From Heptranchias perlo (lineage: Eukaryota): a DNA stretch of 63,228 bases. The stretch lies in NCBI RefSeq assembly GCF_035084215.1, contig NW_027138261.1, positions 1-63,228 of the forward strand, given 5' to 3'. Below are positions 3,160 through 63,228 of this stretch, piece by piece (position 1 is the first letter of the stretch; the number at the start of each line of letters is the position of its first letter). A program made the translations under genes and the position numbers. The notes under the pieces were generated by a model. That model made no database searches, was not told the DNA's origin, and saw only the letters and a list, made by a program, of their open reading frames with translations.

Positions 3160-3219
3160 ATCTGCAAAATGCCCCAGCAACGTCGCACAGCTCCCCAAAC
3201 AGCCACCTCTCTTTGCACT

Positions 3220-3495
3220 GAGACACCAGGTGCTCGGGCTCAGGTACAGTTGTCGGGGGTCTGTGCATCACCCGGGGAGCAAAGAGCTCGATCAGTCGGG
3301 GCCTCCGAAACCCCAGGCCAGGATGCGTCCCCATCGAGCAGCGCTGCTGCCTTAAACCGCAGAAACGAAAGCAGGGCACAGCATGACCTACTTTAGAAAC
3401 TGCCAGGGACGCGTCACAGTGGAAAGACAAACAGCAACCCTCTGATAACTCCAGCTCTCACCACATCCGCCCGACCTCTTTCTGTGCAGCTGCAA
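3220..3495. promoter_or_regulatory. Candidate TCR-beta 3' enhancer (E-beta-like)
   Basis: Unique island with ETS-RUNX composite CGGATGTGGT (minus, 3460-3469), a second RUNX site TGCGGTT (3355-3361), TGATAA (3443-3448), E-boxes CAGGTG (3227) and CAGCTG (3487), and CRE half-site CGTCA (3412). Confidence 0.5.
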
Positions 3496-3569
3496 AACGC
3501 GATCAGTTCAAGTCTCCGTTTTGAGTCAGAGATGTTTGCTCAACCCACTGAGCTTGAATTCTAAAGTCC

Positions 3570-4220
3570 CAACACACTTGGAGCACTGTGCACAGTTCTG
3601 TTCTCCATATACCTGGGTTAGACCACACTTGGAGCACTGTGCTCAGTTCTGGTCTCCATATACCTGGGTTAGACCACACTCGGAGCACTGTGCACAGTTC
3701 TGGTCTCCATATACCTTGGTTAGACCACACTTGGAGCACTGTGCACAGTTCTGGTCTCCATATACCTTGGTTAGACCACACTTGGAGCACTGTGCACAGT
3801 TCTGGTCTCCATATACCTTGGTTAGACCACACTTGGAGCACTGTGCACAGTTCTGGTCTCCATATACCTTGGTTAGACCACACTTGGAGCACTGTGCACA
3901 GTTCTGGTCTCCATATACCTTGGGTAGGCCACACTTGGAACACTGTGCACAGTTCTGGTCTCCATATACCTTGGTTAGACCACACTTGGAGCACTGTGCA
4001 CAGTTCTGGTCTCCATATACCTTGGTTAGACCACACTTGGAGCACTGTGCACAGTTCTGGTCTCCATATACCTTGGTTAGACCACACTTGGAGCACTGTG
4101 CTCAGTTCTGGTCTCCATATACCTTGGTTAGACCACACTCGGAGCACTGTGCTCAGTTCTGGTCTCCATATACCTTGGTTAGTCCACACTCGGAGCACTG
4201 TGCACGGTTCTGGTCTCCAT
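3570..4220 (+). repeat. 51-bp CR1-derived minisatellite (~13 units)
   Basis: Unit ATACCTTGGTTAGACCACACTTGGAGCACTGTGCACAGTTCTGGTCTCCAT = CR1 ORF2 [17 protein letters not shown]. Confidence 0.95.
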
Positions 4221-4869
4221 TGGCCAGAAACTTAACTGGACCAGCCACATAAATACAGTGGCTACAAGAGCAGGTCAGAGGCTGGATATTCTGCGGCGAG
4301 TGACTCACCTCCTGACTCCCCAAAGCCTTTCCACCATCTACAAGGCACAAGTCAGGAGTGTGATGGAATACTCTCCACTTGCCTGGATGAGTGCAGCTCC
4401 AACAACACTCGAGAAGCTCGACACCATCCAGGGCAAAGCAGCCCCGCTTGATTGGCACCCTAAACATTCACTCCCTTCACCACCGGCGCACCGCGGCCGC
4501 AGTGTGGACCATCCACAGGATGCACTGCAGCAACTCGCCAAGGCTTCTTCGACAGCACCTCCCAAACCCGCGACCTCTCCCACCTAGAAGGACGAGGGCA
4601 GCAGGCACATGGGAACAACCCCCACCCGCACGTTCCCCTCCGAGTCACACACCATCCCGACTTGGAAATATATCGGCCGTTCCTTCATCGTCGCTGGGTC
4701 AAAATCCTGGAACTCCCTCCCGAACAGCACTGTGGGAGAACCTTCACCACACGGACTGCAGCGGTTCAAGAAGGCGGCTCACCACCACCTTCTCAAGGGC
4801 AATTAGGGATGGGCAATAAATGCTGGCCTTGCCAGCGACGCCCACATCCCACGAATGAATAAAAAAAAA
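4221..4869 (+). mobile_element. 5'-truncated LINE (same family as 37093-40029) with A-tail
   Basis: Near-identical to 39369-40029; ends ...acgaatgaataaaaaaaaa. Confidence 0.9.
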
Positions 4870-5770
4870 TACCTTGGTTAGACCACACTTGGAGCACTGT
4901 GCACAGTTCTGGTCTCCATATACCTGGGTTAGACCACACTTGGAGCACTGTACTCAGTTCTGGTCTCCATATACCTTGGTTAGACCACACTTGGAGCACT
5001 GTGCACAGTTCAGGTCTCCATATACCTTGGTTAGACCACACTTGGAGCACTGTGCACAGTTCTGGTCTCCATATACCTTGGTTAGACCACACTTGGAGCA
5101 CTGTGCACAGTTCTGGTCTCCATATACCTTGGTTAGACCACACTCGGAGCACTGTGCACAGTTCTGGTCTCCGTATACCTGGGTTAGACCACACTCGGAG
5201 CACTGGGCACAGTTCTGGTCTCCATATACCTGGGTTAGACCACACTTGGAGCACTGTGCACAGTTCTGGTCTCCATACACCTTGGTTGGACCACACTTGG
5301 AGCACTGTGCACAGTTCTGGTCTCCATATACCTTGGTTAGACCACACTTGGAGCACTGTGCACAGTTCTGGTCTCCATATTATAAGAAGGATATAGAGGC
5401 ACTGAAGAAGGTGCAAAAAAGATTTACAAGGATGATACCAGAACTGAGAGGTTTCTAACTATCAGGAAAGACTGAACAGACTGGGGCTCTTTTCTCCGGA
5501 AAAGAGAAGACTGAGGGGTGACCTGATGGAGGTCTTTAAGATTATGAAGGGGTTCGATAGGGTAGACGTAGAGAAGATGTCTCCACTTGTGGGGGGAGAG
5601 ACCAGAACTAGGCGGGGGGGCCATAAATATAAGAGAGTCACCAATAAATCCAATCGGGGAATTCAGGAGAAACTTCTTTCCCCAGAGAGCGGTGGGAATG
5701 GGGAACTCGCTCCCTCGAGGACTAGTCGAGGGGAATAGTGGAGATGGATTTAAGGGGGGAAGCTGTAGAG
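4870..5770 (+). mobile_element. 51-bp array (~10 units) running into CR1 3' end
   Basis: Array continues into [24 protein letters not shown]...LRGDLMEVFKIMKGFDRVD. Confidence 0.9.
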
Positions 5771-5955: not shown

Positions 5956-5961
5956 TTTATT
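5956..5961 (-). terminator. Candidate polyadenylation signal (AATAAA) for TRBC
   Basis: First AATAAA I could find on the minus strand downstream of the stop at 8072; lies in unique sequence. Confidence 0.4.
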
Positions 5962-6167: not shown

Positions 6168-7702
6168 CAGGGGACGAGGGGCTCCAGCTACGCAGGGAGA
6201 GCCTGGAGAAACTTGGGACGTTCTCCTGGAGAGGAGGTCAAGTGGAGATCTGCTAGGACCAGGGGACGAGTGGCTCCAGCCACGCGGAGAGCCTGGAGAA
6301 ACTTGGGACGTTCTCCTGCAGAGGAGGTCAAGTGGAGATCTGCTAGGACCAGGGGACGAGGGGCTCCAGCTACACTGAGAGCCTGGAGAAACTGGGGTTG
6401 ATCTCCTGGAGAGGAGGTCAAGTGGAGATCTGCTAGGACCAGGGGACGAGGGGCTCCAGCTACGCTGAGAGCCTGGAGAAACTTGGGACGTTCTCCTGCA
6501 GAGGAGATCAAGTGGAGATCTGCTAGGACCAGGGGACGAGGGGCTCCAGCTACGCTGAGAGCCTGGAGAAACTTGGGACGTTCTCCTGCAGAGGAGATCA
6601 AGTGGAGATCTGCTAGGACCAGGGGACGAGGGGCTCCATCTACGCTGAGAGCCTGGAGAAACTTGGGACTGTTCTCCTGCAGAGGGGATCAAGTGGAGAT
6701 CTGCTAGGACCAGGGGACGAGGGGCTCCAGCTACACGGAGAGCCTGGAGAAACTGGGGTTGATCTCCTGGAGAGGAGGTCAAGTGGAGATCTGCTAGGAC
6801 CAGGGGACGAGGGAGTCCATCTACGCTGAGAGCCTGGAGAAACTGGGGTTGTTCTCCTGGAGAGGGGGTCAAGTGGAGATCTGCTAGGACCAGGGGACGA
6901 GGGAGTCCATCTACGCTGAGAGCCTGGAGAAACTTGGGACTGTTCTCCTGCAGAGGAGATCAAGTGGAGATCTGCTAGGACCAGGGGACGAGGGGCTCCA
7001 GCTACGCTGAGAGCCTGGAGAAACTGGGGTTGTTCTCCTGGAGAGGAGGTCAAGTGGAGATCTGCTAGGACCAGGGGACGAGGGGCTCCAGCTACACGGA
7101 GAGAGCCTGGAGAAACTGGGGTTGTTCTCCTGGAGAGGAGGTCAAGGGGAGATCTGCTAGGACCAGGGGACGAGGGAGTCCATCTACGTGGAGATCCTGC
7201 AGAAACTGGGGTTGATCTCCTGGAGAGGAGGTCAAGGGGAGATCTGCTAGGACCAGGGGACGAGGGGCTCCAGCTACACGGAGAGCCTGGAGAAACTGGG
7301 GTTGTTCTCCTGGAGAGGAGATCAAGGGGAGATCTGCGAGGACCAGGGGACGAGGGGCTCCAGCTACACGGAGAGAGCCTGGAGAAACTGGGGTTGTTCT
7401 CCTGGAGAGGAGATCAAGGGGAGATCTGCTAGGACCAGGGGACGAGGGAGTCCATCTACGCAGGGAGCCTGGAGAAACTTGGGACGTTCTCCTGGAGAGG
7501 AGATCAAGGGGAGATCTGCTAGGACCAGGGGACGAGGGAGTCCATCTACGTGGAGAGCCTGGAGAAACTGGGGTTGTTCTCCTGGAGAGGAGATCAAGGG
7601 GAGATCTGCGAGGACCAGGGGACGAGGGGCTCCAGCCACGCTGAGAGCCTGAAGAAACTTGGGACGTTCTCCTGGAGAGGAGATCAAGGGGAGATCTGCG
7701 AG
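6168..7702 (+). repeat. ~90-bp minisatellite (~17 units) derived from a decayed CR1 ORF2 segment
   Basis: Unit GGGACGAGGGGCTCCAGCTACGCTGAGAGCCTGGAGAAACT...GTTCTCCTGGAGAGGAGGTCAAGTGGAGATCTGCTAGGACCAG resembles the CR1 'GLSY-ERLEKLGLFSLE-RRLRGDL' coding segment. Confidence 0.85.
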
Positions 7703-8071
7703 CACCTTGGGGTTTCTCGAAGGCCGGCCGACAATCAATGACGGAGAGCAGGCGAACCGCGGCCAGGCGTCGAAGCAAAGCACGTAATACTAACCCCCGC
7801 CCCCCCCTCAAAGCCTCAGACAACGGGAAACGTTCAAAGAGGAGCAGGAAAAGATTCATCCGCAAGGGAAGAGACAGGCCGGAGAGCAAAAGTTCGAAAC
7901 GCTCAGCCAGTGGAGGTCCAGGTGGCTCTGACGTATTTACACGGCGAGGGAGAAGGGGCAACGGGAGGCGTTCGGACGGGAGTCGCGAAACTCTCATTTT
8001 CTCTCGCCTTCCCATCCGACGGGGTCCGTCCGACCCCACCCCACCCCGTCCTCCGACGTTTTTTCCGACGG

Positions 8072-8098
8072 TCAGTCGAATCTCTTGCAGTGAGATGC
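8072..8098 (-). CDS. TRBC: TCR beta constant exon 4 (cytoplasmic tail, coding part)
   Basis: tttacgcacaag|GCATCTCACTGCAAGAGATTCGACTGA = ASHCKRFD*. Phase 0 matches exon 3. A short basic tail is typical of TCR beta. Confidence 0.82.
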   Translation of the reverse strand, partial: ASHCKRFD

Positions 8099-9464: not shown

Positions 9465-9571
9465 CTTAGCCCTCCAAGCGATGATTGAGATGATAATCGC
9501 GTACAGGAGGCTTTTACAGATCAGGATCGTATATGATAACTTTGCCACCCCCATGCTCTGGATTTTTTCCT
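9465..9571 (-). CDS. TRBC: TCR beta constant exon 3 (transmembrane)
   Basis: ctcaacag|AG...GCTAAG|gtaaga. Encodes EKIQSMGVAKLSYTILICKSLLYAIIISIIAWRAK, with the intramembrane Lys and Y..IL..K..LY antigen-receptor TM motif of TCR beta. Confidence 0.93.
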
Positions 9572-11650: not shown

Positions 11651-11671
11651 CTTTGCTCAGGCTGCAGCGTT
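11651..11671 (-). CDS. TRBC: TCR beta constant exon 2 (connecting peptide with interchain Cys)
   Basis: 21-nt micro-exon tttttatttcag|AACGCTGCAGCCTGAGCAAAG|gtgagt = (E)RCSLSK(E). Phase 1/1, compatible with the flanking exons. Confidence 0.9.
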
Positions 11672-13929: not shown

Positions 13930-14274
13930 CAGCCATGATGGTTATCTCGTCGGTGAAGTTCACGGCTTGCGATCCGTTTTGATAGTGGCTCACGTGGCAA
14001 AGGACTTTCTGGGGCTGGACCAGCGCCTGGCCGTCGATCCTTAGCCGACTGCTGATGCTGTAGCTTTTTCCCCTTTCCCCTGCGATAGACCTCAGGTCGG
14101 TTTGAACCTTGCTCTCGGTTGGTGCCTGCTCCTGGCCATTAATGAACCAGTAGATCGCGATGTTGTCCGGGTTGAACCCAGACACCAGACAGACCACGGT
14201 CGCTCGCTGCTTTGCCCTGATCTCTTGCGGGGAGGGCTTGAAGACGACGACTGTTGGACTCCTGATCCCGTGTT
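13930..14274 (-). CDS. TRBC: TCR beta constant region exon 1 (Ig C1-set domain)
   Basis: Encodes (E)HGIRSPTVVVFKPSPQEIRAKQRATVVCLVSGFNPDNIAIYWFING...SYSISSRLRI...VLCHVSHY...ITIMA. Has both C1 Cys, the core Trp and TCR-beta-like motifs (PS-x-E...KATxVCL, YSISSRLR). Acceptor ...cccctggcag|AA and donor GCTG|gtaggc. 345 nt, phase 1/1, open. Confidence 0.93.
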
Positions 14275-16371: not shown

Positions 16372-16433
16372 ACAAATGTAGGCGGCCAACAGAGACCTTT
16401 ATTTAGGTGTTGGAACAAAGCCAACTGCTCTGG
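16372..16433 (+). pseudogene. Inverted J-like relic
   Basis: Plus strand *AANRDLYLGVGTKPTAL + G|gtgagt. Preceded by heptamer-like GCCTGTG (16365-16371) with a weak nonamer. Confidence 0.5.
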
Positions 16434-17524
16434 GTGAGTTTTGAAACCTTCGCAGTTTTAACATTCAATCTCCGCCCATGGTCTCGCCCATATCTATCTC
16501 AGCCTTGAATACATTCAACGATGCAGCATCCACACCACATGACCTCTGAGGTAGAGAATTCCAAAGATCCGCAACTCTCCGAGTGAAGAAACTTTTCCTC
16601 ATCTCAGTCTTGGATGGCCGACCCCCTTATCCTGAGACCGTGTCCCGCCCCCCCCCGCCCTGCCCCGGTTCTGGATTCTCCAGCCAGGGGGGGGGGGGAA
16701 ACAATCTCAGCATCGACCAGCTTATCGATCGCGTGGGATCTTGCTGTGCGCAGTGTAACCCCTACATCACAACAGTGACCGCACTCAAAATACAGCTCCC
16801 CGACTCAAAACTTGGTCTCAGATCCACGGGACCGCGGAACGATGCAGAACAGAACGAAACCATTCGGCCCATCGTGCCTGTGCCGGCTCTTTGAAAAAGA
16901 ACTATCCAATTGGTCCCGTCTCCCCCGTCCCTTTTCCCCGTAGCGAATGCTCGAGACGGTAGGGGGAGGAGCGGGGGTGGGGGGAGACCGCTGGGGTTGT
17001 CCTCCTCAGAGCAGGGAAGGTTAAGAGGGGGGACTTGATCGAGGGGTTCACAATCACGAGGGGGTTTCGACAGAGTGAATAAGGAGGGAGTGTTTCCCAG
17101 CGGGGCAGGAGGGTCGGCAGCCGGAGGACCTGCAGATTTAAGGCAATCGGGGAAAGAACCAGAGGAAGGGGGAGAGGTGGAGGATTATTTTAATGCGTTG
17201 AGTTTTTACGATCTGGAATCCGTAAGAGGGTGTGGGTTGTAACCTTCAAAAGGGAGATTGAATAAATATTTGAAGGGGAAAAGATTGGTAGGGCGACGGG
17301 GGGAGGGGGGGCAGTGGGACTAATTGGTGAGGTCTTCCAAGGAGCCTAGCATTGGCACGATGGGCGCAATGGCCTCCTTCTGTGCTGAGAGTTACCATGA
17401 TTCAAAATCCCAACCAGTCCAATCGGGGTCTTCCAAAAGCCTCCGCCATTCTGCAGTTATCAACAACGGCCTCAAACGATGGCAGGGTTCGAATATTAAT
17501 CGCGCACACGCGGATAAAGACGTA

Positions 17525-18287: not shown

Positions 18288-18316
18288 GAATGTAATATTT
18301 TGACAAGTCTACCTAC

Positions 18317-18367
18317 CTCGAATGACTAATTTAGTCCCATCACCAAATGCATAATCGTAGCTGCCTG
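18317..18367 (-). other. TRBJ: J-beta segment, ORF intact, defective heptamer
   Basis: GSYDYAFGDGTKLVIR + G|gtaggt. RSS AGCAGTG-12-ATTAAAACC (18368-18395) lacks the CAC. Confidence 0.85.
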
Positions 18368-19014
18368 AGCAGTGAAACAAATTAGGATTAAAACCGCCAA
18401 CCGGTTGACGACTTTTAAAACAGCACATCTTCAGAGAGGGCTCCTCTGCCAACATACCAGTTAAGGCAGGAATAATTCACTCGAAAGCATTAATTACTAC
18501 AGGCGTCGTTAACAAATTAAAGCCTGGAGTACTGAACCCGGCCGCCAGCCGTTAACTGATGTAATTCGGCCGACGTCTCACTCACCCAGGCGACCGTCAA
18601 CATCGAGACGTGGGAAAAAAATAGGAGCGGGGGAAGGCCATTCGGCCCTTCGAGCCTGCCCCGCCGTTCGATTTGATCCTGGCCGACCCTGTATCTCAAG
18701 ACCGTATTCCCGCTCTCTCCCCGTACCCCTCGATGCCTTTTGTGTCTAGAAATCTATCCAGCTCCTTCTTGAATATATTCAGGGAATTGGCCTCCACGGC
18801 CTTCTGGGGCAGAGAATTCTACCCTCTGAGTGAAGAAATTTCTCCTCATCTCAGTCCGAAACGTCCTAACCACCCCCCACCCCCCCGTATCCTGAGATTG
18901 TGACCCCCCTTCGAAACTCGAGGGAATACAGGCCGAGTCGACCCAATCTCTCCTCGTCCCAGGGATCAGTCTAGCGAACCTGCGATGCGCTCCCTCTGTG
19001 GCAAATCTCCTTTC

Positions 19015-19060: not shown

Positions 19061-19374
19061 CACATTACGATAAACCCATCACAAAAATAATCCTCGCAGA
19101 TGTTATTATTTACGTTTGATATTGGTTATTGGCTCGTATCGGCTCGCCGTAAGCTAGCTCATAAACGAACCAGGAGGTTTCCAACTGAAGCAAACTGCAT
19201 TTCTCAACACCGTCTAATCTATCTATGTGTGAACCTATCTGTAGTTAATTCAGCTCAAGGCAGTGCGTCAACTGACCAGTTAGGACAGAGAACGCTGGAC
19301 GATTTTTGGAGTCCCTTCCCAATTATTAATTACGTGCGAGGTGAAACTAGTTATCCTGGCTTCGGTTAACTCGC

Positions 19375-19431
19375 CCAAAATCGCCAGCATCGACCCTCGT
19401 CCAAAATAGAAAGGGTCGTTATACCCGTCCG
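19375..19431 (-). other. TRBJ: J-beta segment with GC splice donor
   Basis: DGYNDPFYFGRGSMLAIL + G|gcgagt. 12-RSS CACTGCA-12-GCGAAAACA at 19432-19459. Confidence 0.85.
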
Positions 19432-19509
19432 CACTGCACCGAGTGACAGTGCGAAAACACAGAGATTGTCGATAGATACATAGACCAACAAGGAGATAAG
19501 TGGAGAGAC

Positions 19510-22500
19510 NNNNNNNNNNNNNNNNNNNNNNNNNNNNNNNNNNNNNNNNNNNNNNNNNNNNNNNNNNNNNNNNNNNNNNNNNNNNNNNNNNNNNNNNNNN
19601 NNNNNNNNNNNNNNNNNNNNNNNNNNNNNNNNNNNNNNNNNNNNNNNNNNNNNNNNNNNNNNNNNNNNNNNNNNNNNNNNNNNNNNNNNNNNNNNNNNNN
19701 NNNNNNNNNNNNNNNNNNNNNNNNNNNNNNNNNNNNNNNNNNNNNNNNNNNNNNNNNNNNNNNNNNNNNNNNNNNNNNNNNNNNNNNNNNNNNNNNNNNN
19801 NNNNNNNNNNNNNNNNNNNNNNNNNNNNNNNNNNNNNNNNNNNNNNNNNNNNNNNNNNNNNNNNNNNNNNNNNNNNNNNNNNNNNNNNNNNNNNNNNNNN
19901 NNNNNNNNNNNNNNNNNNNNNNNNNNNNNNNNNNNNNNNNNNNNNNNNNNNNNNNNNNNNNNNNNAGACAGATNNNNNNNNNNNNNNNNNNNNNNNNNNN
20001 NNNNNNNNNNNNNNNNNNNNNNNNNNNNNNNNNNNNNNNNNNNNNNNNNNNNNNNNNNNNNNNNNNNNNNNNNNNNNNNNNNNNNNNNNNNNNNNNNNNN
20101 NNNNNNNNNNNNNNNNNNNNNNNNNNNNNNNNNNNNNNNNNNNNNNNNNNNNNNNNNNNNNNNNNNNNNNNNNNNNNNNNNNNNNNNNNNNNNNNNNNNN
20201 NNNNNNNNNNNNNNNNNNNNNNNNNNNNNNNNNNNNNNNNNNNNNNNNNNNNNNNNNNNNNNNNNNNNNNNNNNNNNNNNNAGAGAGCCAGAGAGATAGA
20301 GAGAGAGACAGATAGAGAGACAGACNNNNNNNNNNNNNNNNNNNNNNNNNNNNNNNNNNNNNNNNNNNNNNNNNNNNNNNNNNNNNNNNNNNNNNNNNNN
20401 NNNNNNNNNNNNNNNNNNNNNNNNNNNNNNNNNNNNNNNNNNNNNNNNNNNNNNNNNNNNNNNNNNNNNNNNNNNNNNNNNNNNNNNNNNNNNNNNNNNN
20501 NNNNNNNNNNNNNNGACNNNNNNNNNNNNNNNNNNNNNNNNNNNNNNNNNNNNNNNNNNNNNNNNNNNNNNNNNNNNNNNNNNNNNNNNNNNNNNNNNNN
20601 NNNNNNNNNNNNNNNNNNNNNNNNNNNNNNNNNNNNNNNNNNNNNNNNNNNNNNNNNNNNNNNNNNNNNNNNNNNNNNNNNNNNNNNNNNNNNNNNNNNN
20701 NNNNNNNNNNNNNNNNNNNNTAGATAGAGAGACAGAGAGAGATAGATAGAGAGAGAGATAGAGAGATAGATAGAGAGACAGACAGAGAGATAGATAGAGA
20801 GACAGAGAGAGAGATAGATAGAGAGACAGAGAGAGAGNNNNNNNNNNNNNNNNNNNNNNNNNNNNNNNNNNNNNNNNNNNNNNNNNNNNNNNNNNNNNNN
20901 NNNNNNNNNNNNNNNNNNNNNNNNNNNNNNNNNNNNNNNNNNNNNNNNNNNNNNNNNNNNNNNNNAATGAGAGAGNNNNNNNNNNNNNNNNNNNNNNNNN
21001 NNNNNNNNNNNNNNNNNNNNNNNNNNNNNNNNNNNNNNNNNNNNNNNNNNNNNNNNNNNNNNNNNNNNNNNNNNNNNNNNNNNNNNNNNNNNNNNNNNNN
21101 NNNNNNNNNNNNNNNNNNNNNNNNNNNNNNNNNNNNNNNNNNNNNNNNNNNNNNNNNNNNNNNAGATAGAGAGACAGACAGAGAGATAGATAGAAAGATA
21201 GANNNNNNNNNNNNNNNNNNNNNNNNNNNNNNNNNNNNNNNNNNNNNNNNNNNNNNNNNNNNNNNNNNNNNNNNNNNNNNNNNNNNNNNNNNNNNNNNNN
21301 NNNNNNNNNNNNNNNNNNNNNNNNNNNNNNNNNNNNNGATAGATAGAGAGACAGACAAAGAGATAGATAGAGAGACAGACAGAGAGACAGACAGAGATAG
21401 ATAGAGAGACAGACAGAGAGAGAGACAGAGAGATAGAGAGAGAGACAGATAGAGAGNNNNNNNNNNNNNNNNNNNNNNNNNNNNNNNNNNNNNNNNNNNN
21501 NNNNNNNNNNNNNNNNNNNNNNNNNNNNNNNNNNNNNNNNNNNNNNNNNNNNNNNNNNNNNNNNNNNNNNNNNNNNNNNNNNNNNNNNNNNNNNNNAGAC
21601 AGAGAGATAGACAGAGAGACAGACAGAGATAGATAGAGAGACAGACAGAGAGACAGACAGAGAGATAGACAGAGAGACAGACAGAGATAGATAGAGAGAC
21701 AGACAGAGAGACAGACAGAGATAGATAGAGAGACAGACAGAGAGAGAGACAGAGAGATAGAGAGAGAGACAGATAGAGNNNNNNNNNNNNNNNNNNNNNN
21801 NNNNNNNNNNNNNNNNNNNNNNNNNNNNNNNNNNNNNNNNNNNNNNNNNNNNNNNNNNNNNNNNNNNNNNNNNNNNNNNNNNNNNNNNNNNNNNNNNNNN
21901 NNNNNNNNNNNNNNNNNNNNNNNNNNNNNNNNNNNNNNNNNNNNNNNNNNNNNNNNNNNNNNNNNNNNNNNNNNNNNNNNNNNNNNNNNNNNNNNNNNNN
22001 NNNNNNNNNNNNNNNNNNNNNNNNNNNNNNNNNNNNNNNNNNNNNNNNNNNNNNNNNNNNNNNNNNNNNNNNNNNNNNNNNNNNNNNNNNNNNNNNNNNN
22101 NNNNNNNNNNNNNNNNNNNNNNNNNNNNNNNNNNNNNNNNNNNNNNNNNNNNNNNNNNNNNNNNNNNNNNNNNNNNNNNNNNNNNNNNNNNNNNNNNNNN
22201 NNNNNNNTAGATAGAGAGACAGAGAGAGATAGATAGAGAGAGAGATAGAGAGATAGATAGAGAGACAGACAGAGAGATAGATAGAGAGACAGAGAGAGAG
22301 ATAGATAGAGAGACAGAGAGAGAGNNNNNNNNNNNNNNNNNNNNNNNNNNNNNNNNNNNNNNNNNNNNNNNNNNNNNNNNNNNNNNNNNNNNNNNNNNNN
22401 NNNNNNNNNNNNNNNNNNNNNNNNNNNNNNNNNNNNNNNNNNNNNNNNNNNNAATGAGAGAGNNNNNNNNNNNNNNNNNNNNNNNNNNNNNNNNNNNNNN

Positions 22501-25072
22501 NNNNNNNNNNNNNNNNNNNNNNNNNNNNNNNNNNNNNNNNNNNNNNNNNNNNNNNNNNNNNNNNNNNNNNNNNNNNNNNNNNNNNNNNNNNNNNNNNNNN
22601 NNNNNNNNNNNNNNNNNNNNNNNNNNNNNNNNNNNNNNNNNNNNNNNNNNAGATAGAGAGACAGACAGAGAGATAGATAGAAAGATAGANNNNNNNNNNN
22701 NNNNNNNNNNNNNNNNNNNNNNNNNNNNNNNNNNNNNNNNNNNNNNNNNNNNNNNNNNNNNNNNNNNNNNNNNNNNNNNNNNNNNNNNNNNNNNNNNNNN
22801 NNNNNNNNNNNNNNNNNNNNNNNNGATAGATAGAGAGACAGACAAAGAGATAGATAGAGAGACAGACAGAGAGACAGACAGAGATAGATAGAGAGACAGA
22901 CAGAGAGAGAGACAGAGAGATAGAGAGAGAGACAGATAGAGAGNNNNNNNNNNNNNNNNNNNNNNNNNNNNNNNNNNNNNNNNNNNNNNNNNNNNNNNNN
23001 NNNNNNNNNNNNNNNNNNNNNNNNNNNNNNNNNNNNNNNNNNNNNNNNNNNNNNNNNNNNNNNNNNNNNNNNNNNNNNNNNNNAGACAGAGAGATAGACA
23101 GAGAGACAGACAGAGATAGATAGAGAGACAGACAGAGAGACAGACAGAGAGATAGACAGAGAGACAGACAGAGATAGATAGAGAGACAGACAGAGAGACA
23201 GACAGAGATAGATAGAGAGACAGACAGAGAGAGAGACAGAGAGATAGAGAGAGAGACAGATAGAGNNNNNNNNNNNNNNNNNNNNNNNNNNNNNNNNNNN
23301 NNNNNNNNNNNNNNNNNNNNNNNNNNNNNNNNNNNNNNNNNNNNNNNNNNNNNNNNNNNNNNNNNNNNNNNNNNNNNNNNNNNNNNNNNNNNNNNNNNNN
23401 NNNNNNNNNNNNNNNNNNNNNNNNNNNNNNNNNNNNNNNNNNNNNNNNNNNNNNNNNNNNNNNNNNNNNNNNNNNNNNNNNNNNNNNNNNNNNNNNNNNN
23501 NNNNNNNNNNNNNNNNNNNNNNNNNNNNNNNNNNNNNNNNNNNNNNNNNNNNNNNNNNNNNNNNNNNNNNNNNNNNNNNNNNNNNNNNNNNNNNNNNNNN
23601 NNNNNNNNNNNNNNNNNNNNNNNNNNNNNNNNNNNNNNNNNNNNNNNNNNNNNNNNNNNNNNNNNNNNNNNNNNNNNNNNNNNNNNNNNNNNNNTAGATA
23701 GAGAGACAGAGAGAGATAGATAGAGAGAGAGATAGAGAGATAGATAGAGAGACAGACAGAGAGATAGATAGAGAGACAGAGAGAGAGATAGATAGAGAGA
23801 CAGAGAGAGAGNNNNNNNNNNNNNNNNNNNNNNNNNNNNNNNNNNNNNNNNNNNNNNNNNNNNNNNNNNNNNNNNNNNNNNNNNNNNNNNNNNNNNNNNN
23901 NNNNNNNNNNNNNNNNNNNNNNNNNNNNNNNNNNNNNNNAATGAGAGAGNNNNNNNNNNNNNNNNNNNNNNNNNNNNNNNNNNNNNNNNNNNNNNNNNNN
24001 NNNNNNNNNNNNNNNNNNNNNNNNNNNNNNNNNNNNNNNNNNNNNNNNNNNNNNNNNNNNNNNNNNNNNNNNNNNNNNNNNNNNNNNNNNNNNNNNNNNN
24101 NNNNNNNNNNNNNNNNNNNNNNNNNNNNNNNNNNNNNAGATAGAGAGACAGACAGAGAGATAGATAGAAAGATAGANNNNNNNNNNNNNNNNNNNNNNNN
24201 NNNNNNNNNNNNNNNNNNNNNNNNNNNNNNNNNNNNNNNNNNNNNNNNNNNNNNNNNNNNNNNNNNNNNNNNNNNNNNNNNNNNNNNNNNNNNNNNNNNN
24301 NNNNNNNNNNNGATAGATAGAGAGACAGACAAAGAGATAGATAGAGAGACAGACAGAGAGACAGACAGAGATAGATAGAGAGACAGACAGAGAGAGAGAC
24401 AGAGAGATAGAGAGAGAGACAGATAGAGAGNNNNNNNNNNNNNNNNNNNNNNNNNNNNNNNNNNNNNNNNNNNNNNNNNNNNNNNNNNNNNNNNNNNNNN
24501 NNNNNNNNNNNNNNNNNNNNNNNNNNNNNNNNNNNNNNNNNNNNNNNNNNNNNNNNNNNNNNNNNNNNNNAGACAGAGAGATAGACAGAGAGACAGACAG
24601 AGATAGATAGAGAGACAGACAGAGAGACAGACAGAGAGATAGACAGAGAGACAGACAGAGATAGATAGAGAGACAGACAGAGAGACAGACAGAGATAGAT
24701 AGAGAGACAGACAGAGAGAGAGACAGAGAGATAGAGAGAGAGACAGATAGAGNNNNNNNNNNNNNNNNNNNNNNNNNNNNNNNNNNNNNNNNNNNNNNNN
24801 NNNNNNNNNNNNNNNNNNNNNNNNNNNNNNNNNNNNNNNNNNNNNNNNNNNNNNNNNNNNNNNNNNNNNNNNNNNNNNNNNNNNNNNNNNNNNNNNNNNN
24901 NNNNNNNNNNNNNNNNNNNNNNNNNNNNNNNNNNNNNNNNNNNNNNNNNNNNNNNNNNNNNNNNNNNNNNNNNNNNNNNNNNNNNNNNNNNNNNNNNNNN
25001 NNNNNNNNNNNNNNNNNNNNNNNNNNNNNNNNNNNNNNNNNNNNNNNNNNNNNNNNNNNNNNNNNNNNNNNN
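19510..25072. repeat. GATA/GACA/GA microsatellite field with 1487-bp higher-order repeat, largely masked
   Basis: Identical blocks recur at 20967, 22454 and 23941. Confidence 0.85.
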
Positions 25073-37092: not shown

Positions 37093-40029
37093 ATAAAACC
37101 GGACGAACCACCCGGCATCGGACCACTAGGCACCAGACACGACAACGGCAAAACACCAAGCCCAGTCGACCCTGCAAGTTCCTCCTTACTAACATCTGGG
37201 GACTTGTGCCAAAATTGGGAGAGCTGTCCCACAGACTAGTCAAGCAACAGCCTGACATAGCCATACTCACAGAATCATATCTTTCAGCCAACGTCCCAGA
37301 CTCTTCCATCACCATCCCTGGGTATGTCCTGTCCCACCGGCAGGACAGACCCACCAGAGGTGGCGGTACAGTGATATACAGTCAGGAGGGAGTGGCCCTG
37401 GGAGTCCTCAACATTGACTCTGGACCCCATGAAATCTCATGGCATCAGGTCAAACATGGGCAAGGAAACCTCCTGCTGATTACCACCTACCGCCCTCCCT
37501 CAGCTGATGAATCAGTCCTCCTCCATGTTGAACACCACTTGGAGGAAGCACTGAGGGTAGCAAGAGCACAGAATGTACTCTGGGTGGGGGACTTCAATGT
37601 CCATCACCAAGAGTGGCTCGGTAGCACCACTACTGACCGAGCTGGCCGAGTCCTGAAGGACACAGCTGCTAGACTGGGCCTGCGGCAGGTGGTGAGCGAA
37701 CCAACATGAGGGAAAAACTTACTTGACCTCATCCTCACCAATCTCCCTGTCGCAAATGCATCTGTCCATGACAGTATTGGTAGGAGTGACCACCGCACAG
37801 TCCTCGTGGAGATGAAGACCCGTCTTCGCACTGAGGACACCATCCAACGTGTTGTGTGGCACTACCACCGTGCTAAATGGGATAGATTCAGAACAGATCT
37901 AGCAGCTCAAAATTGGGCATCCATGAGGCGCTGTGGGCCATCAGCAGCAGCAGAATTGTATTCCAGCACAATCTGTAACCTCATGGTCCGGCATATTCCT
38001 CACTCTACCATTACCAACAAGCCAGGGGATCAACCCTGGTTCAATGAGGAGTGTAGAAGAGCATGCCAGGAGCAGCACCAGGCGTACCTAAAAATGAGGT
38101 GCCAACCTGGTGAAGCTGCAACTCAGGACTACATGCATGCTAAACAGCGGAAGCAACATGCTATAGACAGAGCTAAGCAACGGATCAGATCAAAGCTCTG
38201 CAGTCCTGCCACATCCAGTCATGAATGGTGGTGGACAATTAAACAACTAACGGGAGGAGGAGGCTCTGCAAACATCCCCATTCTCAATGATGGCGGAGTC
38301 CAGCACGTGCGTGCAAAAGACAAGGCTGAAGCGTTTGCAACCATCTTCAGCCAGAAGTGCCAAGTGGATGATCCATCTCAGCCTCCTCCCGATATCCCCA
38401 CCATCACAGAAGCCAGTCTTCGGCCAATTCGATTCACTCCACGTGATATCAAGAAACGGCTGAGTGCACTGGATACAGCAAAGGCTATGGGCCCCGACAA
38501 CATCCCAGCTGTAGTGCTGAAGACTTGTGCTCCAGAACTAGCTGCGCCTCTCGCCAAGCTGTTCCAGTACAGCTACAACACTGGCATCTACCCGACAATG
38601 TGGAAAATTGCCCAGGTATGTCCTGTCCACAAAAAGCAGGACAAATCCAATCTGGCCAATTACCGCCCCATCAGTCTACTCTCAATCATCAGCAAAGTGA
38701 TGGAAGGTGTCGTCGACAGTGCTATCAAGCGGCACTTACTCACCAATAACCTGCTCACTGATGCTCAGTTTGGGTTCCGCCAGGACCACTCGGCTCCAGA
38801 CCTCATTACAGCCTTGGTCCAAACATGGACAAAAGAGCTGAATTCCAGAGGTGAGGTGAGAGTGACTGCCCTTGACATCAAGGCAGCATTTGACCGAGTG
38901 TGGCACCAAGGAGCCCTAGTAAAATTGAAGTCCATGGGAATCAGGGGGAAAACTCTCCAGTGGCTGGAGTCATACCGAGCACAAAGGAAGATGGTAGTGG
39001 TTGTTGGAGGCCAATCATCTCCGCCCCAGGACATTGCTGCAGGAGTTCCTCAGGGCAGTGTCCTAGGCCCAACCATCTTCAGCTGCTTCATCAATGACCT
39101 TCCCTCCATCATAAGGTCAGAAATGGGGATGTTCGCTGATGACTGCAGAGTGTTCAGTTCCATTCGCAACCCCTCAGATAATGAAGCAGTCCGAGCCCGC
39201 ATGCAGCAAGACCTGGACAACATCCAGGCTCGGGCTCATAAGTGGCAAGTAACATTCACGCCAGGCATTGACCATCTCCAACAAGAGAGAGTCTAACCAC
39301 CTCCCCTTGACATTCAACGGCATTACCATCGCCGAATCCCCCACCATCAACATCCTATGGGTCACCATTGACCAGAAACTTAACTGGACCAGCCATGTAA
39401 ATACTGTGGCTACAAGAGCAGGTCAGAGGCTGGGTATTCTGCGGCGAGTGACTCACCTCCTGACTCCCCAAAGCCTTTCCACCATCTACAAGGCACAAGT
39501 CAGGAGTGTGATGGAATACTCTCCACTTGCCTGGATGAGTGCAGCTCCAACAACACTCAAGAAGCTCGACACCATCCAGGGCAAAGCAGCCCCGCTCGAT
39601 CGGCACCCTAAACATTCACTCCCTTCACCACCGGCGCACCGCGGCCGCAGTGTGGACCATCCACAGGATGCACTGCAGCAACTCGCCAAGGCTTCTTCGA
39701 CAGCACCTCCCAAACCCGCGACCTCTCCCACCTAGAAGGACGAGGGCAGCGGGCACATGGGGACAACCCCCACCCGCACGTTCCCCTCCGAGTCGCACAC
39801 CGTCCTGACTTGGAAATATATCGGCCGTTCCCTCATCGTCGCTGGGTCAAAATCCTGGAGCTCCCTTCCCAACGGCACTGTGGGAGAACCGTCACCACAC
39901 GGACTGCAGCGGTTCAAGAAGGCGGCTCACCACCACCTTCTCAAGGGGCGATGAGGGATGGGCAATAAATGCCGGCCTGGCCAGCGACGCCCGCATCCCA
40001 CGAACGAATAAAAAAAAAAAAAAAAAAAA
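37093..40029 (+). mobile_element. Non-LTR retrotransposon (CR1/L2/Jockey-group LINE), near-complete ORF2 (APE endonuclease + RT), inactivated, poly(A) tail
   Basis: APE motifs TNIWGL, LTES, GDFN, LDLIL, SDH. RT motifs YRPISLL, QFGFR, LDIKAAFDRVWH, GVPQGSVLGP, FADD. In-frame TGA at 37707-37709, frameshift near 39265, A-tail of about 20 nt at 40010-40029. Confidence 0.93.
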
Positions 40030-41770
40030 TTCTGGTCTCCAGATACCTTGGTTAGACCACACTACGAGCACTGTTCACAGTTCTGGTCTCCATATACCTG
40101 GGTTCGACCACACTTGGAGCACTGTGCGCAGTTCTGGTCTCCATATACCTTGGTTAGACCACACTCGGAGCACTGTGCGCAGTTCTGGTCTCCATATACC
40201 TGGGTTAGACCACACTTGGAGCACTGTGCGCAGTTCTGGTCTCCATATACCTTGGTTAGACCACACTCGGAGCACTGTGCGCAGTTCTGGTCTCCATATA
40301 CCTGGGTTAGACCACACTCGGAGCACTGTGCGCAGTTCTGGTCTCCATATACCTGGGTTAGACCACACTCGGAGCACTGTGCGCAGTTCTGGTCTCCATA
40401 TACCTTGGTTAGACCACACTCGGAGCACTGTGCACAGTTCTGGTCTCCATATACCTTGGTTAGACCACACTTGGAGCACTGTGCACAGTTCTGGTCTCCA
40501 TATACCTTGGTTAGACCACACTACGAGCACTGTTCACAGTTCTGGTCTACATATACCTGGGATCGACCACACTTGGAGCACTGTGCGCAGTTCTGGTCTC
40601 CATATACCTTGGTTAGACCACACTCGGAGCACTGTGCGCAGTTCTGGTCTCCATATACCTGGGTTAGACCACACTTGGAGCACTGTGCGCAGTTCTGGTC
40701 TCCATATACCTTGGTTAGACCACACTCGGAGCACTGTGCGCAGTTCTGGTCTCCATATACCTGGGTTAGACCACACTCGGAGCACTGTGCGCAGTTCTGG
40801 TCTCCATATACCTGGGTTAGACCACACTCGGAGCACTGTGCGCAGTTCTGGTCTCCATATACCTTGGTTAGACCACACTCGGAGCACTGTGCACAGTTCT
40901 GGTCTCCATATACCTTGGTTAGACCACACTTGGAGCACTGTGCACAGTTCTGGTCTCCATATACCTTGGTTAGACCACACTTGGAGCACTGTGCACAGTT
41001 CTGGTCTCCATATACCTGGGTTAGACCACACTTGGAGCACTGTGCACAGTTCTGGTCTCCATATACCTTGGTTAGACCACACTTGGAGCACTGTGCACAG
41101 TTCTGGTCTCCATATACCTGGGTTAGACCACACTTGGAGCACTGTGCACAGTTCTGGTCTCCATATACCTTGGTTAGACCACACTTGGAGCACTGTGCAC
41201 AGTTCTGGTCTCCATATACCTTGGTTAGACCACACTTGGAGCACTGTGCACAGTTCTGGTCTCCATATTATAAAAAAGATATAGAGGCATTGGAGAAGGT
41301 GCAAAGAAAGATTTACAAGGATGACACCACAACTGAGAGGTTTCTAACTATCAGGAAAGACTGAACAGACTGGGGCTCTTTTCTAGAAAAGAGAAGACTG
41401 AGGGGTGACCTGATGGAGGTCTTTAAGATTATGAAAGGTTTCGATAGGGTAGACGTAGAGAAGATGTCTCCACTTGTGGGGGAGACCAGAACTAGGGGGG
41501 GGGGCATAAATATAAGAGAGTCACTAATAAATCCAATCGGGGAATTCAGGAGAAACTTCTTTCCCCAGAGAGCGGTGAGAATGTGGAACTCGCTCCCACA
41601 AGGAGTAGTCGAGGGGAATAGTGGAGATGGATTTAAGGGGGGGGAAGCTGGATAGACACATGAGGGAGAAAGGAATGGAAGGAGAGGGGGAGATGGAGGA
41701 GGGAGGGAGGGAGGAGGCTCGTGTGGAGCATGAGCACCAGCATGGAGCATGATGGGCCGAACGGCCTGTT
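40030..41770 (+). mobile_element. 51-bp array (~24 units, to ~41268) running into CR1 3' end
   Basis: Array then [13 protein letters not shown]...MEVFKIMKGFDRVD...FFPQRAVRMWNSLP. Confidence 0.92.
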
Positions 41771-46648: not shown

Positions 46649-49600
46649 GTCTCTCTCGCCCTCTCTCTCTTTCTTTCCTCCTCCATCTCTCTCGTTCTCT
46701 CTCTCTTTCTTTCCTCCTCCATCTCTCTCGTTCTCTCTCTCTTTCTTTCCTCCTCCATCTCTCTCGTCCTCTCTCTCTTTCTTCCCTCCTCCATCTCTCT
46801 CGTCCTCTCTCTCTTTCTCTCCGCCTCCATCTCTCTCGTCCTCTCTCTCTCACTTTCCTCCTCCATCTCTCTCATCCTCTCTCTCTTTCTTCCCTCCTCC
46901 ATCTCTCTCGTTCTCTCTCTCTCTCTTCCCTCCATCTCTCTCGTCCTCTCTCTCTCTCCCCTCCTCCATCTCTCTCGTCCTCTCTCTCTTTCTTCCCTCC
47001 TCCATCTCTCTCGTCCTCTCTCTCTTTCTTTCCTCCTCCATCTCTCTTGTCCTCTCTCTCTTTCTTTCCTCCTCCATCTCTCTCGTCCTCTCTCTCTTTC
47101 TTCCCTCCTCCATCTCTCTCGTCCTCTCTCTCTCTTTCTTCCCTCCTCCATCTCTCTCGTCCTCTCTCTTTCTTCCCTCCTCCATCTCTCTCGTCCTCTC
47201 TCGCTTTCTTTCCTCCTCCATCTCTCTCGTCCTCTCTCTCTCTTTCTTCCCTCCTCCATCTCTCTCGTCCTCTCTCTCTTTCTTCCCTCCTCCATCTCTC
47301 TCGTCCTCTCTCTCTCTTTCTTTCCTCCTCCATCTCTCTCCTCCTCTCTCTCTTTCTTCCCTCCTCCATCTCTCTCGTCCTCTCTCTCTTTCTTCCCTCC
47401 TCCATCTCTCTCGTCCTCTCTCTCTCTTTCTTCCCTCCTCCATCTCTCTCCTCCTCTCTCTCTTTCTTCCCTCCTCCATCTCTCTCGTCCTCTCTCTCTT
47501 TCTTTCCTCCTCCATCTCTCTCGACCTCTCTCTCTTTCTTCCCTTCTCCATCTCTCTCGTCCTCTCTCTCTTTCTTCCCTCCTCCATCTCTCCCGTCCTC
47601 TCTCTCTCTTTCTTTCCTCCTCCATCTCTCTCGTCCTCTCTCTCTCTCCCCTCCTCCATCTCTCTCATCCTCTCTCTCTTTCTTCCCTCCTCCATCTCTC
47701 TCATCCTCTCTCTCTTTCTTCCCTCCTCCGTCTCTCTCGTCCTCTCTCTCTCTTTCTTTCCTCCTCCATCTCTCTCGTCCTCTCTCTCTTTCTTCCCTCC
47801 TCCATCTCTCTCGTCCTCTCTCTCTTTCTTCCCTCCTCCATCTCTCTCGTCCTCTCTCTCTTTCTTCCCTCCTCCGTCTCTCTCGTCCTCTCTCTCTTTC
47901 TTCCCTCCTCCATCTCTCTCGTCCTCTCTCTCTTTCTGTCCTCCTCCATCTCTCTCGTCCTCTCTCTCTCTCTTTCCTCCTCCATCTCTCTCGTCCTCTC
48001 TCTCTTTCTTCCCTCCTCCGTCTCTCTCGTCCTCTCTCTCTCTCTCCCCTCCTCCATCTCTCTCGTCCTCTCTCTCTTTCTTCCCTCCTCCATCTCTCTT
48101 GTCCTCTCTCTCTTTCTTCCCTCCTCCATCTCTCTCGTCCTCTCTCTCTTTCTTCCCTCCTCCATCTCTCTCGTCCTCTCTCTCTTTCTTTCCCCCTCCA
48201 TCTCTCTCGTCCTCTCTCTCTTTCTTCCCTCCTCCATCTCTCTCGTCCTCTCTCTCTTTCTTCCTCCTCCATCTCTCTCGACCTCTCTCTCTTTCTTCCC
48301 TCCTCCATCTCTCTCGTCCTCTCTCTCTTTCTTCCCTCCTCCATCTCTCTCGTCCTCTCTCTCTCTTTCTCTCCTCCTCCATCTCTCTCGTCCTCTCTCT
48401 CTTTCTTCCCTCCTCCATCTCTCTCGTCCTCTCTCTCTTTCTTCCCTCCTCCATCTCTCTCGTCCTCTCTCTCTTCTTCCCTCCTCCATCTCTCTCGTCC
48501 TCTCTCTCTTTCTTCCCTCCTCCATCTCTCTCCGTCCTCTCTCTCTCTCTTCCCTCCTCCATCTCTCTCGTCCTCTCTCTCTTCCTTCCCTCCTCCATCT
48601 CTCTCGTCCTCTCTCTCTTTCTTCCCTCCTCCATCTCTCTCGTCCTCTCTCTCTTTCTTCCCTCCTCCATCTCTCTCGTCCTCTCTCTCTTTCTTCCCTC
48701 CTCCATCTCTCTCGTCCTCTCTCTCTCTCTTCCCTCCTCCATCTCTCTCGTCCTCTCTCTCTTTCTTCCTCCTCCATCTCTCTCGTCCTCTCTCTCTCTT
48801 TCTTCCCTCCTCCATCTCTCTCGTCCTCTCTCTCTTTCTTCCCTCCTCCATCTCTCTCGTCCTCTCTCTCATTCTTCCTCCTCCATCTCTCTCGTCCTCT
48901 CTCTCTTTCTTCCCTCCTCCATCTCTCTCGTCCTCTCTCTCTTTCTTCCCTCCTCCATCTCTCTCGTCCTCTCTCTCTTTCTTCCCTCCTCCATCTCTCT
49001 CGTCCTCTCTCTCTCTCTTCCCTCCTCCATCTCTCTCGTCCTCTCTCTCTCTCTTCCCTCCTCCATCTCTCTCGTCCTCTCTCTCTTTCTTCCCTCCTCC
49101 ATCTCTCTCGTCCTCTCTCTCTTTCTTCCCTCCTCCATCTCTCTCGTCCTCTCTCTCATTCTTCCCTCCTCCATCTCTCTCGTCCTCTCTCTCTTTCTTC
49201 CTCCTCCATCTCTCTCGTCCTCTCTCTCTTTCTTCCCTCCTCCATCTCTCTCGTCCTCTCTCTCTTTCTTCCCTCCTCCATCTCTCTCGTCCTCTCTCTC
49301 TTTCTTCCCTCCTCCATCTCTCTCGTCCTCTCTCTCTTCTTCCCTCCTCCATCTCTCTCGTCCTCTATCTCTTTCTTTCCTCCTCCATCTCTCTCGTCCT
49401 CTCTCTCTTTCTTCCCTCCTCCATCTCTCTCGTCCTCTCTCTCTTTCTTCCCTCCTCCATCTCTCTCGTCCTCTCTCTCTCTCTTCCCTCCTCCATCTCT
49501 CTCGTCCTCTCTCTCTTTCTTCCCTCCTCCATCTCTCTCCTCCTCTCTCGCTTTCTTCCTCCTCCATCTCTCTCGTCCTCTCTCTCTTTCTTCCCTCCTC

Positions 49601-61600: not shown

Positions 61601-63228
61601 CGTCTCTCTCTCTTCTTCCCCCTCCATCTCTCTCGTCCTCTCTCTCTCTCTTCCCTCCTCCATCTCTCTCGTCCTCTCTCTCTCTTTCTTTCCTCCTCCA
61701 TCTCTCCCGTCCTCTCTCTCTCTCTTCCCTCCTCCATCTCTCTCGTCCTCTCTCTCTCTCTTCCTCCTCCATCTCTCTCGTCCTCTCTCTCTCTCTCTTC
61801 CCTCCTCCATCTCTCTCGTCCTCTCTCTCTTTCTTCCCTCCTCCATCTCTCTCGTCCTCTCTCTCTTTCTTCCTCCTCCATCTCTCTCGTCCTCTCCTCT
61901 TTCTTCCCTCCTCCGTCTCTCTCGTCCTCTCTCTCTTCTTTCCTCCTCCATCTCTCTCGTCCTCTCTCTCTCTCTTCCCTCCTCCATCTCTCTCGTCCTC
62001 TCTCTCTTTCTTCCCTCCTCCATCTCTCTCGTCCTCTCTCTCTTTCTTCCTCCTCCATCTCTCTCGTCCTCTCTCTCTTTCTTCCCTCCTCCATCTCTCT
62101 CGTCCTCTCTCTCTTCCTTCCCTCCTCCATCTCTCTCGTCCTCTCTCTCTCTCTTCCTCCTCCATCTCTCTCGTCCTCTCTCTCTTTCTTCCCTCCTCCA
62201 TCTCTCCCGTCCTCTCTCTCTTTCTTCCCTCCTCCATCTCTCTCGTCCTCTCTCTCTCTCTTTCCTCCTCCATCTCTCTCGTCCTCTCTCTCTTCTTCCC
62301 TCCTCCATCTCTCTCCGTCCTCTCTCTCTTCTTCCCTCCTCCATCTCTCTCGTCCTCTCTCTCTCTTCTTTCCTCCTCCATCTCTCTCGTCCTCTCTCTC
62401 TCTTCCCTCCTCCATCTCTCTCGTCCTCTCTCTCTCTCTTCCCTCCTCCATCTCTCTCGTCCTCTCTCTCATTCTTCCCTCCTCCATCTCTCTCGTCCTC
62501 TCTCTCTTTCTTCCCTCCTCCATCTCTCTCGTCCTCTCTCTCTTTCTTTCCTCCTCCATCTCTCTCGTCCTCTCTCTCTCTCTCTTCCCTCCTCCATCTC
62601 TCTCGTCCTCTCTCTCTTTCTTCCTCCTCCATCTCTCTCGTCCTCTCTCTCTCTCTTCCCTCCTCCATCTCTCTCGTCCTCTCTCTCTCTTTCTTCCCTC
62701 CTCCATCTCTCTCGTCCTCTCTCTCTTTCTTTCCTCCTCCATCTCTCTCGTCCTCTCTCTCTTCTCTTCCCTCCTCCATCTCTCTCGTCCTCTCTCTCTC
62801 TCTTCCCTCCTCCATCTCTCTCGTCCTCTCTCTCTCATTCTTCCCTCCTCCATCTCTCTCGTCCTCTCTCTCTTTCTTCCCTCCTCCGTCTCTCTCGTCC
62901 TCTCTCTCTTCTCCCCTCTCTCATCTCTCTCGTCCTCTCTCTCTTCTTCCTCCTCCATCTCTCTCGTCCTCTCTCTCTTTCTTTCCTCCTCCATCTCTCT
63001 CGTCCTCTCTCTCTTTCTTCCCTCCTCCATCTCTCTCGTCCTCTCTCTCTTTCTTCCCTCCTCCATCTCTCTCGTCCTCTCTCTCTTTCTTCCCTCCTCC
63101 GTCTCTCTCGTCCTCTCTCTCTTCCTCCCCTCCTCCATCTCTCTCGTCCTCTCTCTCTTTCTTCCTCCTCCATCTCTCTCGTCCTCTCTCTCTTTCTTCC
63201 CTCCTCCATCTCTCTCGTCCTCTCTCTA
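46649..63228. repeat. >16.5-kb polypyrimidine/polypurine satellite, ~36-bp unit
   Basis: Consensus CTCCATCTCTCTCGTCCTCTCTCTCTTTCTTCCCTC with variable CT lengths; runs off the window end. Confidence 0.97.

Follow-up and report, generated by a model that had tools for sequence, protein, structure and literature searches.

We consider it likely that a 413-bp island in the genome of the shark Heptranchias perlo (positions 3160 to 3572 of the 63,228-nucleotide stretch of DNA analyzed here, which we refer to as the window) is a T-cell enhancer of the TCR-beta D-J-C cluster carried by the same DNA, built on two facing ETS-RUNX composite sites. By analogy, the island probably works like E-beta, which mice require for TCR-beta rearrangement and for the development of alpha-beta T cells (PMC5288706, PMC13639285). 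The first-pass annotation of this DNA had placed a candidate TCR-beta enhancer 3' of the constant gene. The TCR-beta identity of the locus was upheld by our analysis, and the enhancer-like reading was supported and further strengthened by a second composite, which is perfect in the allele found in sequencing run X2.

The TCR-beta cluster on the minus strand

The minus strand of the window, which consists of repeat-rich shark DNA, carries one TCR-beta D-J-C cluster. Its assignment to TRB follows from a D segment with 12/23 signals, J segments with the FGxG motif and a four-exon C gene with a TRB-type transmembrane region and tail. The D segment GGGGACAGCAGTAC (27863-27876, minus strand, as for all segments and exons of the cluster) is flanked at its 5' end by a 12-spacer signal and at its 3' end by a 23-spacer signal. 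Downstream of it lie four J segments, the ends of which are approximate: HFGQGTKLPVLG at 27217-27268, YFGNGTRLAVLG at 26907-26954, YFGRGSMLAILG at 19370-19440 and YAFGDGTKLVIRG at 18316-18372. The third of these terminates in GCGAGT, that is, in a GC rather than a GT splice donor. The constant gene begins with an Ig C1-set exon (13930-14274; Pfam C1-set E-value, 2e-15), followed by a hinge exon containing a cysteine (11651-11671), the transmembrane exon KLSYTILICKSLLY (9465-9571; KLTYLILICKSILY in the homologues) and the cytoplasmic exon ASHCKRFD* (8072-8098), which ends at the TGA stop codon at 8072-8074. The Ig exon is 51 to 53% identical to two Pristiophorus TCR-beta-like chains, the only 2 matches from 100 candidates. 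The phases of the four exons are compatible, and the transmembrane region and tail of the Pristiophorus chains, the latter ending in ASYSKRFD, match closely. Pristiophorus japonicus has two distinct TCR-beta-like constant regions (P0002 and P0003), and some sharks may thus possess more than one TRB cluster.

From the C stop to the start of the window, the minus strand contains a single AATAAA, the likely poly(A) signal, at 5956-5961; the island therefore lies outside the likely mRNA. A 90-bp tandem array (6168-7706, 17 copies) is located between the stop codon and this AATAAA and would thus fall inside a 3' UTR of ∼2.1 kb. Between the J segments and the C gene, we further observed an inverted J-like stretch on the plus strand (16375-16442, approximate ends) that reads NRDLYLGVGTKPTALG and then GTGAGT. 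No good recombination signal was found for it, and it is therefore possibly a decayed inverted J segment. In those parts of the window that were read, we noticed no V segment.

Upstream of the D segment, a pyrimidine-rich unit of 36 bp is repeated 463 times in a 16.5-kb array over 46650-63227, and a non-repeated island ∼5 kb upstream of D (32872-33121), with a GATA site, two E2A boxes and TGACG, is a possible D-promoter or upstream element. Simple-repeat blocks at approximately 21000-24750, largely masked, recur three times with a spacing of 1,487 bp, which reflects either a higher-order repeat or an assembly artefact. A 51-bp unit forms five arrays (3573-4220, 4869-5380, 26247-26622, 33944-37092 and 40030-41268). 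These pass directly into LINE-like sequence at 5380 and 41268, and this continuity suggests that the 51-bp unit arose from a LINE segment. A long LINE-like copy also sits between 51-bp arrays on the plus strand (37093-40000, approximate); its endonuclease and reverse-transcriptase motifs appeared by eye to be broken over several frames.

A single-copy island 3' of the constant gene and its motifs

The island is bounded by a run of N on its left edge and by a 51-bp tandem array on the other side. Its single-copy nature, proposed in the first-pass annotation, was confirmed, and the extent given there (3220-3495) proved to be too narrow. Within the window the island has no self-match, the best other match covering 12 to 22 bp at an E-value of 3.1. 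It gave no Rfam match at E-values of up to 1 and no Pfam family in the six open frames scanned, and a search for homologues of near length returned no match. Neither the island nor positions 1-346 yielded an exon, a V segment or a 12/23 signal. A potential recombination signal at 3415-3439 (plus strand) was rejected, since the perfect heptamer CACAGTG is followed only 9 bp on by a nonamer that matches at 7 of 9 positions; this heptamer is altered in the run X2 contig. No function has been assigned to several further non-repeated islands of the window, and uniqueness is thus weak evidence of function. The placement of the island is as expected for an E-beta-like element: its main composite (composite 1) lies 4,604 bp past the C stop and ∼2.5 kb past the sole AATAAA.

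All of the motifs reported by the first-pass annotation were found. Composite 1, CGGATGTGGT at 3460-3469 on the minus strand, is in the orientation of the locus, has no other exact copy in the window and is unchanged in the X2 contig. Its last nine bases equal the human E-beta site, and positions 3460-3468 match perfectly the published composite consensus GGATGYGGY (PMC10681739). Its ETS half reads GCGGAT, compared to the ETS1-selective CAGGAT, and the site contains a CpG; both features count against the enhancer reading. The accessory motifs comprise a free-standing RUNX site TGCGGT (3356-3361, minus strand), a GATA site TGATAA (3443-3448, plus strand), a CRE half-site TGACG (3412-3416, minus strand) and two E2A-type E-boxes, namely, CAGCTG at 3487-3492, 18 bp upstream of composite 1 in the direction of the locus, and CAGGTG/CACCTG at 3227-3232. 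A third CANNTG, the E-box or MYB-like CAACTG, is present at 3247-3252. Two elements had not featured in the earlier reading of the sequence. The first, composite 2, CAGGATGCGTC at 3319-3329 on the plus strand, faces composite 1 and has the ETS1-selective CAGGAT form of the ETS half; its positions 3321-3329 differ from GGATGYGGY by one mismatch, at 3328. The second is an AP-1 consensus, TGACTCA, at 3522-3528, beyond the extent of the earlier annotation, with a shuffle P value of 0.088. The TCF/LEF consensus (WWCAAAG or CTTTGWW) is absent from the island.

We assessed the chance level of these motifs by dinucleotide shuffling of the island (20,000 shuffles). For the exact composite 9-mer GGATGTGGT, the P value was 0.003, compared to 0.015 for MGGAWGYGGY and 0.034 for GGAWGYGGY. 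In the non-repeated DNA 3' of the stop codon (1,526 bases), the values were 0.009 for the exact 9-mer and 0.11 for GGAWGYGGY, and over all 11,373 non-repeated bases the exact 9-mer reached 0.11. In the whole window GGATGYGGY occurs twice, against 0.79 expected occurrences, and 18 of 100 shuffles reach two; the second perfect composite is GGATGTGGC at 38208-38216, inside the reading frame of the LINE-like copy. Composite 1 beats chance only given a prior expectation of its position. Individually, the GATA (P = 0.16), E-box (two E2A boxes, 0.16) and TGACG (0.53) sites are at the chance level, and the presence of two RUNX sites gave 0.078. Taken jointly, GATA, E-boxes, TGACG and RUNX gave a P value of 0.006 for a set that was picked after the fact. 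Composite 1 alone thus constitutes modest evidence, and on the evidence of the first reading an enhancer call is plausible, not strong. The pairing of composites is rarer, with two perfect copies in 3 of 60,000 shuffles and one perfect plus one near copy in 50 of 15,000.

These results bear on a chance origin, in which the island would be unique DNA evolving neutrally, or an old repeat that has decayed, and its motifs would form a post-hoc pattern; we regard this as unlikely. Several observations would fit such an origin: a loose composite (GGAWGYGGY) is found in 59% of the shuffles of the non-repeated DNA, a one-mismatch composite arises in 29% of the island shuffles, the LINE in the window carries a perfect composite, the accessory sites do not exceed chance, and composite 2 is broken in the window allele. 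Moreover, the left part of the island resembles another sequence, with a 38-bp piece (3171-3208) being alike at 31 of 38 positions in sequencing runs X1 and X4. However, the exact 9-mer was set in advance by E-beta and was found where predicted. There are also no terminal repeats, which leaves a terminal-repeat element unsupported, no AATAAA on the minus strand of the island and no multi-copy contigs over its core, which is covered by one contig at an 80% threshold with a filter that may drop records. The island therefore shows no sign of being an interspersed repeat of the LTR, MITE or LINE type, although it may conceivably be a very old one. A further argument against chance comes from the second sequenced allele.

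A second allele and position 3328

A search of sequencing runs, in which near identity was needed for a match, identified four runs from one sample with one organism label. At 80% likeness, a single 461-base contig of run X2 spans the whole island and is ∼99% identical to it, with five differences, four of which are listed (3273 C>T, 3328 T>G, 3420 T>C and 3515 T>C). Runs X1 and X4 yielded only the 38-bp side match and X3 yielded nothing, possibly an effect of the filter. The X2 DNA may come from another individual or from a sister species. With G at 3328, composite 2 becomes a perfect match to GGATGYGGY, so that the X2 allele carries two facing perfect composites and the window allele carries only one. 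None of the four X2 differences breaks a listed motif, which is uninformative by itself.

Of all single-base changes that the island could undergo (1,239), only 3328 T>G adds a perfect composite, and the observation of precisely this change stands against a chance origin of the motifs. Its probability of occurring among four to five differences is 0.003 to 0.004 under uniform change, for a test that was conceived after the reads had been seen and when other gains of motifs would have drawn notice too. The G was seen directly in one contig, at a depth of 2.6, and the difference is flagged as a possible error. If it were an error private to X2, the other runs would be expected to hold ∼3 words more, and the chance of there being none is 0.03. 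The share of 41 sampled words held was 0.54 to 0.56 in all four runs, and this near equality argues that the differences are shared, all runs being from one sample; the four X2 differences predict a share of 0.64 to 0.68, somewhat above that observed. The T of the window may itself be an assembly error.

An ancestral state with both sites and the subsequent loss of one would be a more economical explanation than a gain. The existence of a window allele with one perfect composite argues against strict selection on composite 2. The T at 3328 would be expected to weaken the RUNX half of composite 2, and this weakness is perhaps tolerated, with the ETS half intact and the free RUNX site at 3356-3361 partly covering for the broken half. 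Such cover is conceivable because ETS1-RUNX1 cooperation tolerates many spacings (PMC10681739).

Relation to mammalian E-beta and proposed function

The first-pass annotation took as its premise that mammalian E-beta lies several kb 3' of C-beta and has an ETS-RUNX composite as its core. This holds, except that mouse E-beta is described as having two composites, not one (PMC7696796, PMC13639285). Like mouse and human E-beta (elements betaE1-6 / Tbeta2-4), the shark island is located several kb 3' of TRBC. Mouse E-beta lies ∼6 kb past the end of the DJC2 transcript (PMC8016127), and the bovine element, which is 76 to 78% alike to that of mouse or human, lies 8.7 kb 3' of TRBC3 (PMC2685407). Human E-beta carries CAGGATGTGGT (PMC2787013), with which composite 1 shares the 9-mer given above. 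The RUNX halves of mouse E-beta are printed as TGTGGTT and TGCCACA (PMC4291525); if these are written on one strand and in order, they would face each other, GGT and then GGC. On that reading, the arrangement would be shared by the X2 allele, in which the RUNX halves of the two composites are opposite (3468 to 3460 on the minus strand and 3321 to 3329 on the plus strand), again GGT and then GGC. In mice, mutation of one RUNX site causes a partial block in which alpha-beta T cells are still made, and mutation of both causes a full block (PMC5288706).

GATA, CRE and kappaE2 sites are present in bovine E-beta (PMC2685407), and GATA, CRE-like and E-box sites likewise lie near the shark composites, each at the chance level and with only half of a CRE. 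The two elements also differ. Composite 1 of the shark has the GCGGAT form of the ETS half, and composite 2 is broken in the window allele. Bovine E-beta fits betaE1-6 into 187 bp (PMC2685407), whereas in the shark the two composites extend over 148 bp and the motifs as a whole over ∼300 bp. The order of the sites differs as well, since the shark GATA site and CRE half-site lie between the two composites. In E-beta, GATA and CRE belong to betaE1/betaE2 and, provided that the elements are numbered from 5' to 3', precede betaE4.

ETS-RUNX composites are not confined to E-beta and mark many T-cell enhancers genome-wide, including E-alpha, which has GAGGATGTGGC (PMC2787013). Like E-alpha, the shark island lies 3' of a TCR constant gene and contains such a composite; unlike it, the island belongs to a different locus, has more than a single composite in the X2 allele and lacks a TCF/LEF consensus. 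E-alpha uses a LEF/TCF site. The shark composite also has the preferred cooperative spacing and orientation of the generic enhancers cobound by ETS1 and RUNX (Hollenhorst 2009, PMC2787013). Those enhancers are not homologous to each other, and a shared motif therefore indicates a shared logic, not descent.

The generic nature of the motif leaves room for a real lymphoid or haematopoietic element that mainly serves another target: a TRB cluster located further downstream, a V gene in inverted orientation or a neighbouring gene past the start of the window. Such a target would be compatible with the two Pristiophorus chains, given that more than one cluster may exist, with the mouse V gene located 3 kb past E-beta (PMC8016127) and with the window extending only ∼3 kb beyond the island, but it is very unlikely: no identified gene is closer than the C gene, the search of the island and of positions 1-346 for exons, V segments and 12/23 signals was negative, and the placement matches that of E-beta.

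In the likely case, the island would act as an enhancer of the D-J-C cluster itself. By inference from mouse and human E-beta, an ETS factor and RUNX1 or RUNX3 with CBFbeta would cooperate in thymocytes in binding to 3460-3468 and 3321-3329, and E-protein, GATA and AP-1/CREB factors may assist. The Runt domain of the elephant shark is nearly invariant compared to that of human, and Runx3 is expressed in the elephant shark thymus (PMC3974841). Through looping, the bound island is predicted to contact a promoter close to the D segment at a distance of ∼24 kb, to make the D-J region accessible to RAG and, at a later stage, to maintain transcription of the rearranged gene.

A more far-reaching proposal is that the island is a true orthologue of mammalian E-beta, with facing composites 3' of C-beta having activated TCR-beta rearrangement ever since sharks and mammals last shared an ancestor, the spacing and accessory sites having been reshuffled and a natural shark variant knocking out one RUNX half. 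We regard this as possible and put it forward tentatively. A generic motif can evolve twice at a site where it is expected, and descent from a common element is therefore not shown by the motif; the terms "ancient" and "conserved across jawed vertebrates," which the first-pass annotation had applied to the candidate enhancer and to its cis-regulatory logic, respectively, are hypotheses. A precedent is offered by "indirectly conserved" enhancers, in which the position is kept, the binding sites are shuffled and the sequence cannot be aligned (PMC12165850). That work compared mouse and chicken hearts by chromatin data and reporters, whereas the shark case is a proposal from sequence over a far larger distance.

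Searches of metagenome contigs gave 539 pattern matches for relatives of the shark TRBC, none of which was confirmed, and three loci (L001 to L003) for a pattern designed to retrieve mammalian E-beta. By eye none of the three resembles E-beta; L002 and L003 appear to represent a single transposase-like stretch of bacterial DNA. In the literature, covering open-licence papers and preprints, we found no description of such an enhancer in cartilaginous fish, and the word "enhancer" is absent from PMC10322711. The presence of an enhancer at this position is expected rather than surprising. If the twin-site design of the shark element is true, this regulatory switch would go back to the beginnings of V(D)J immunity.
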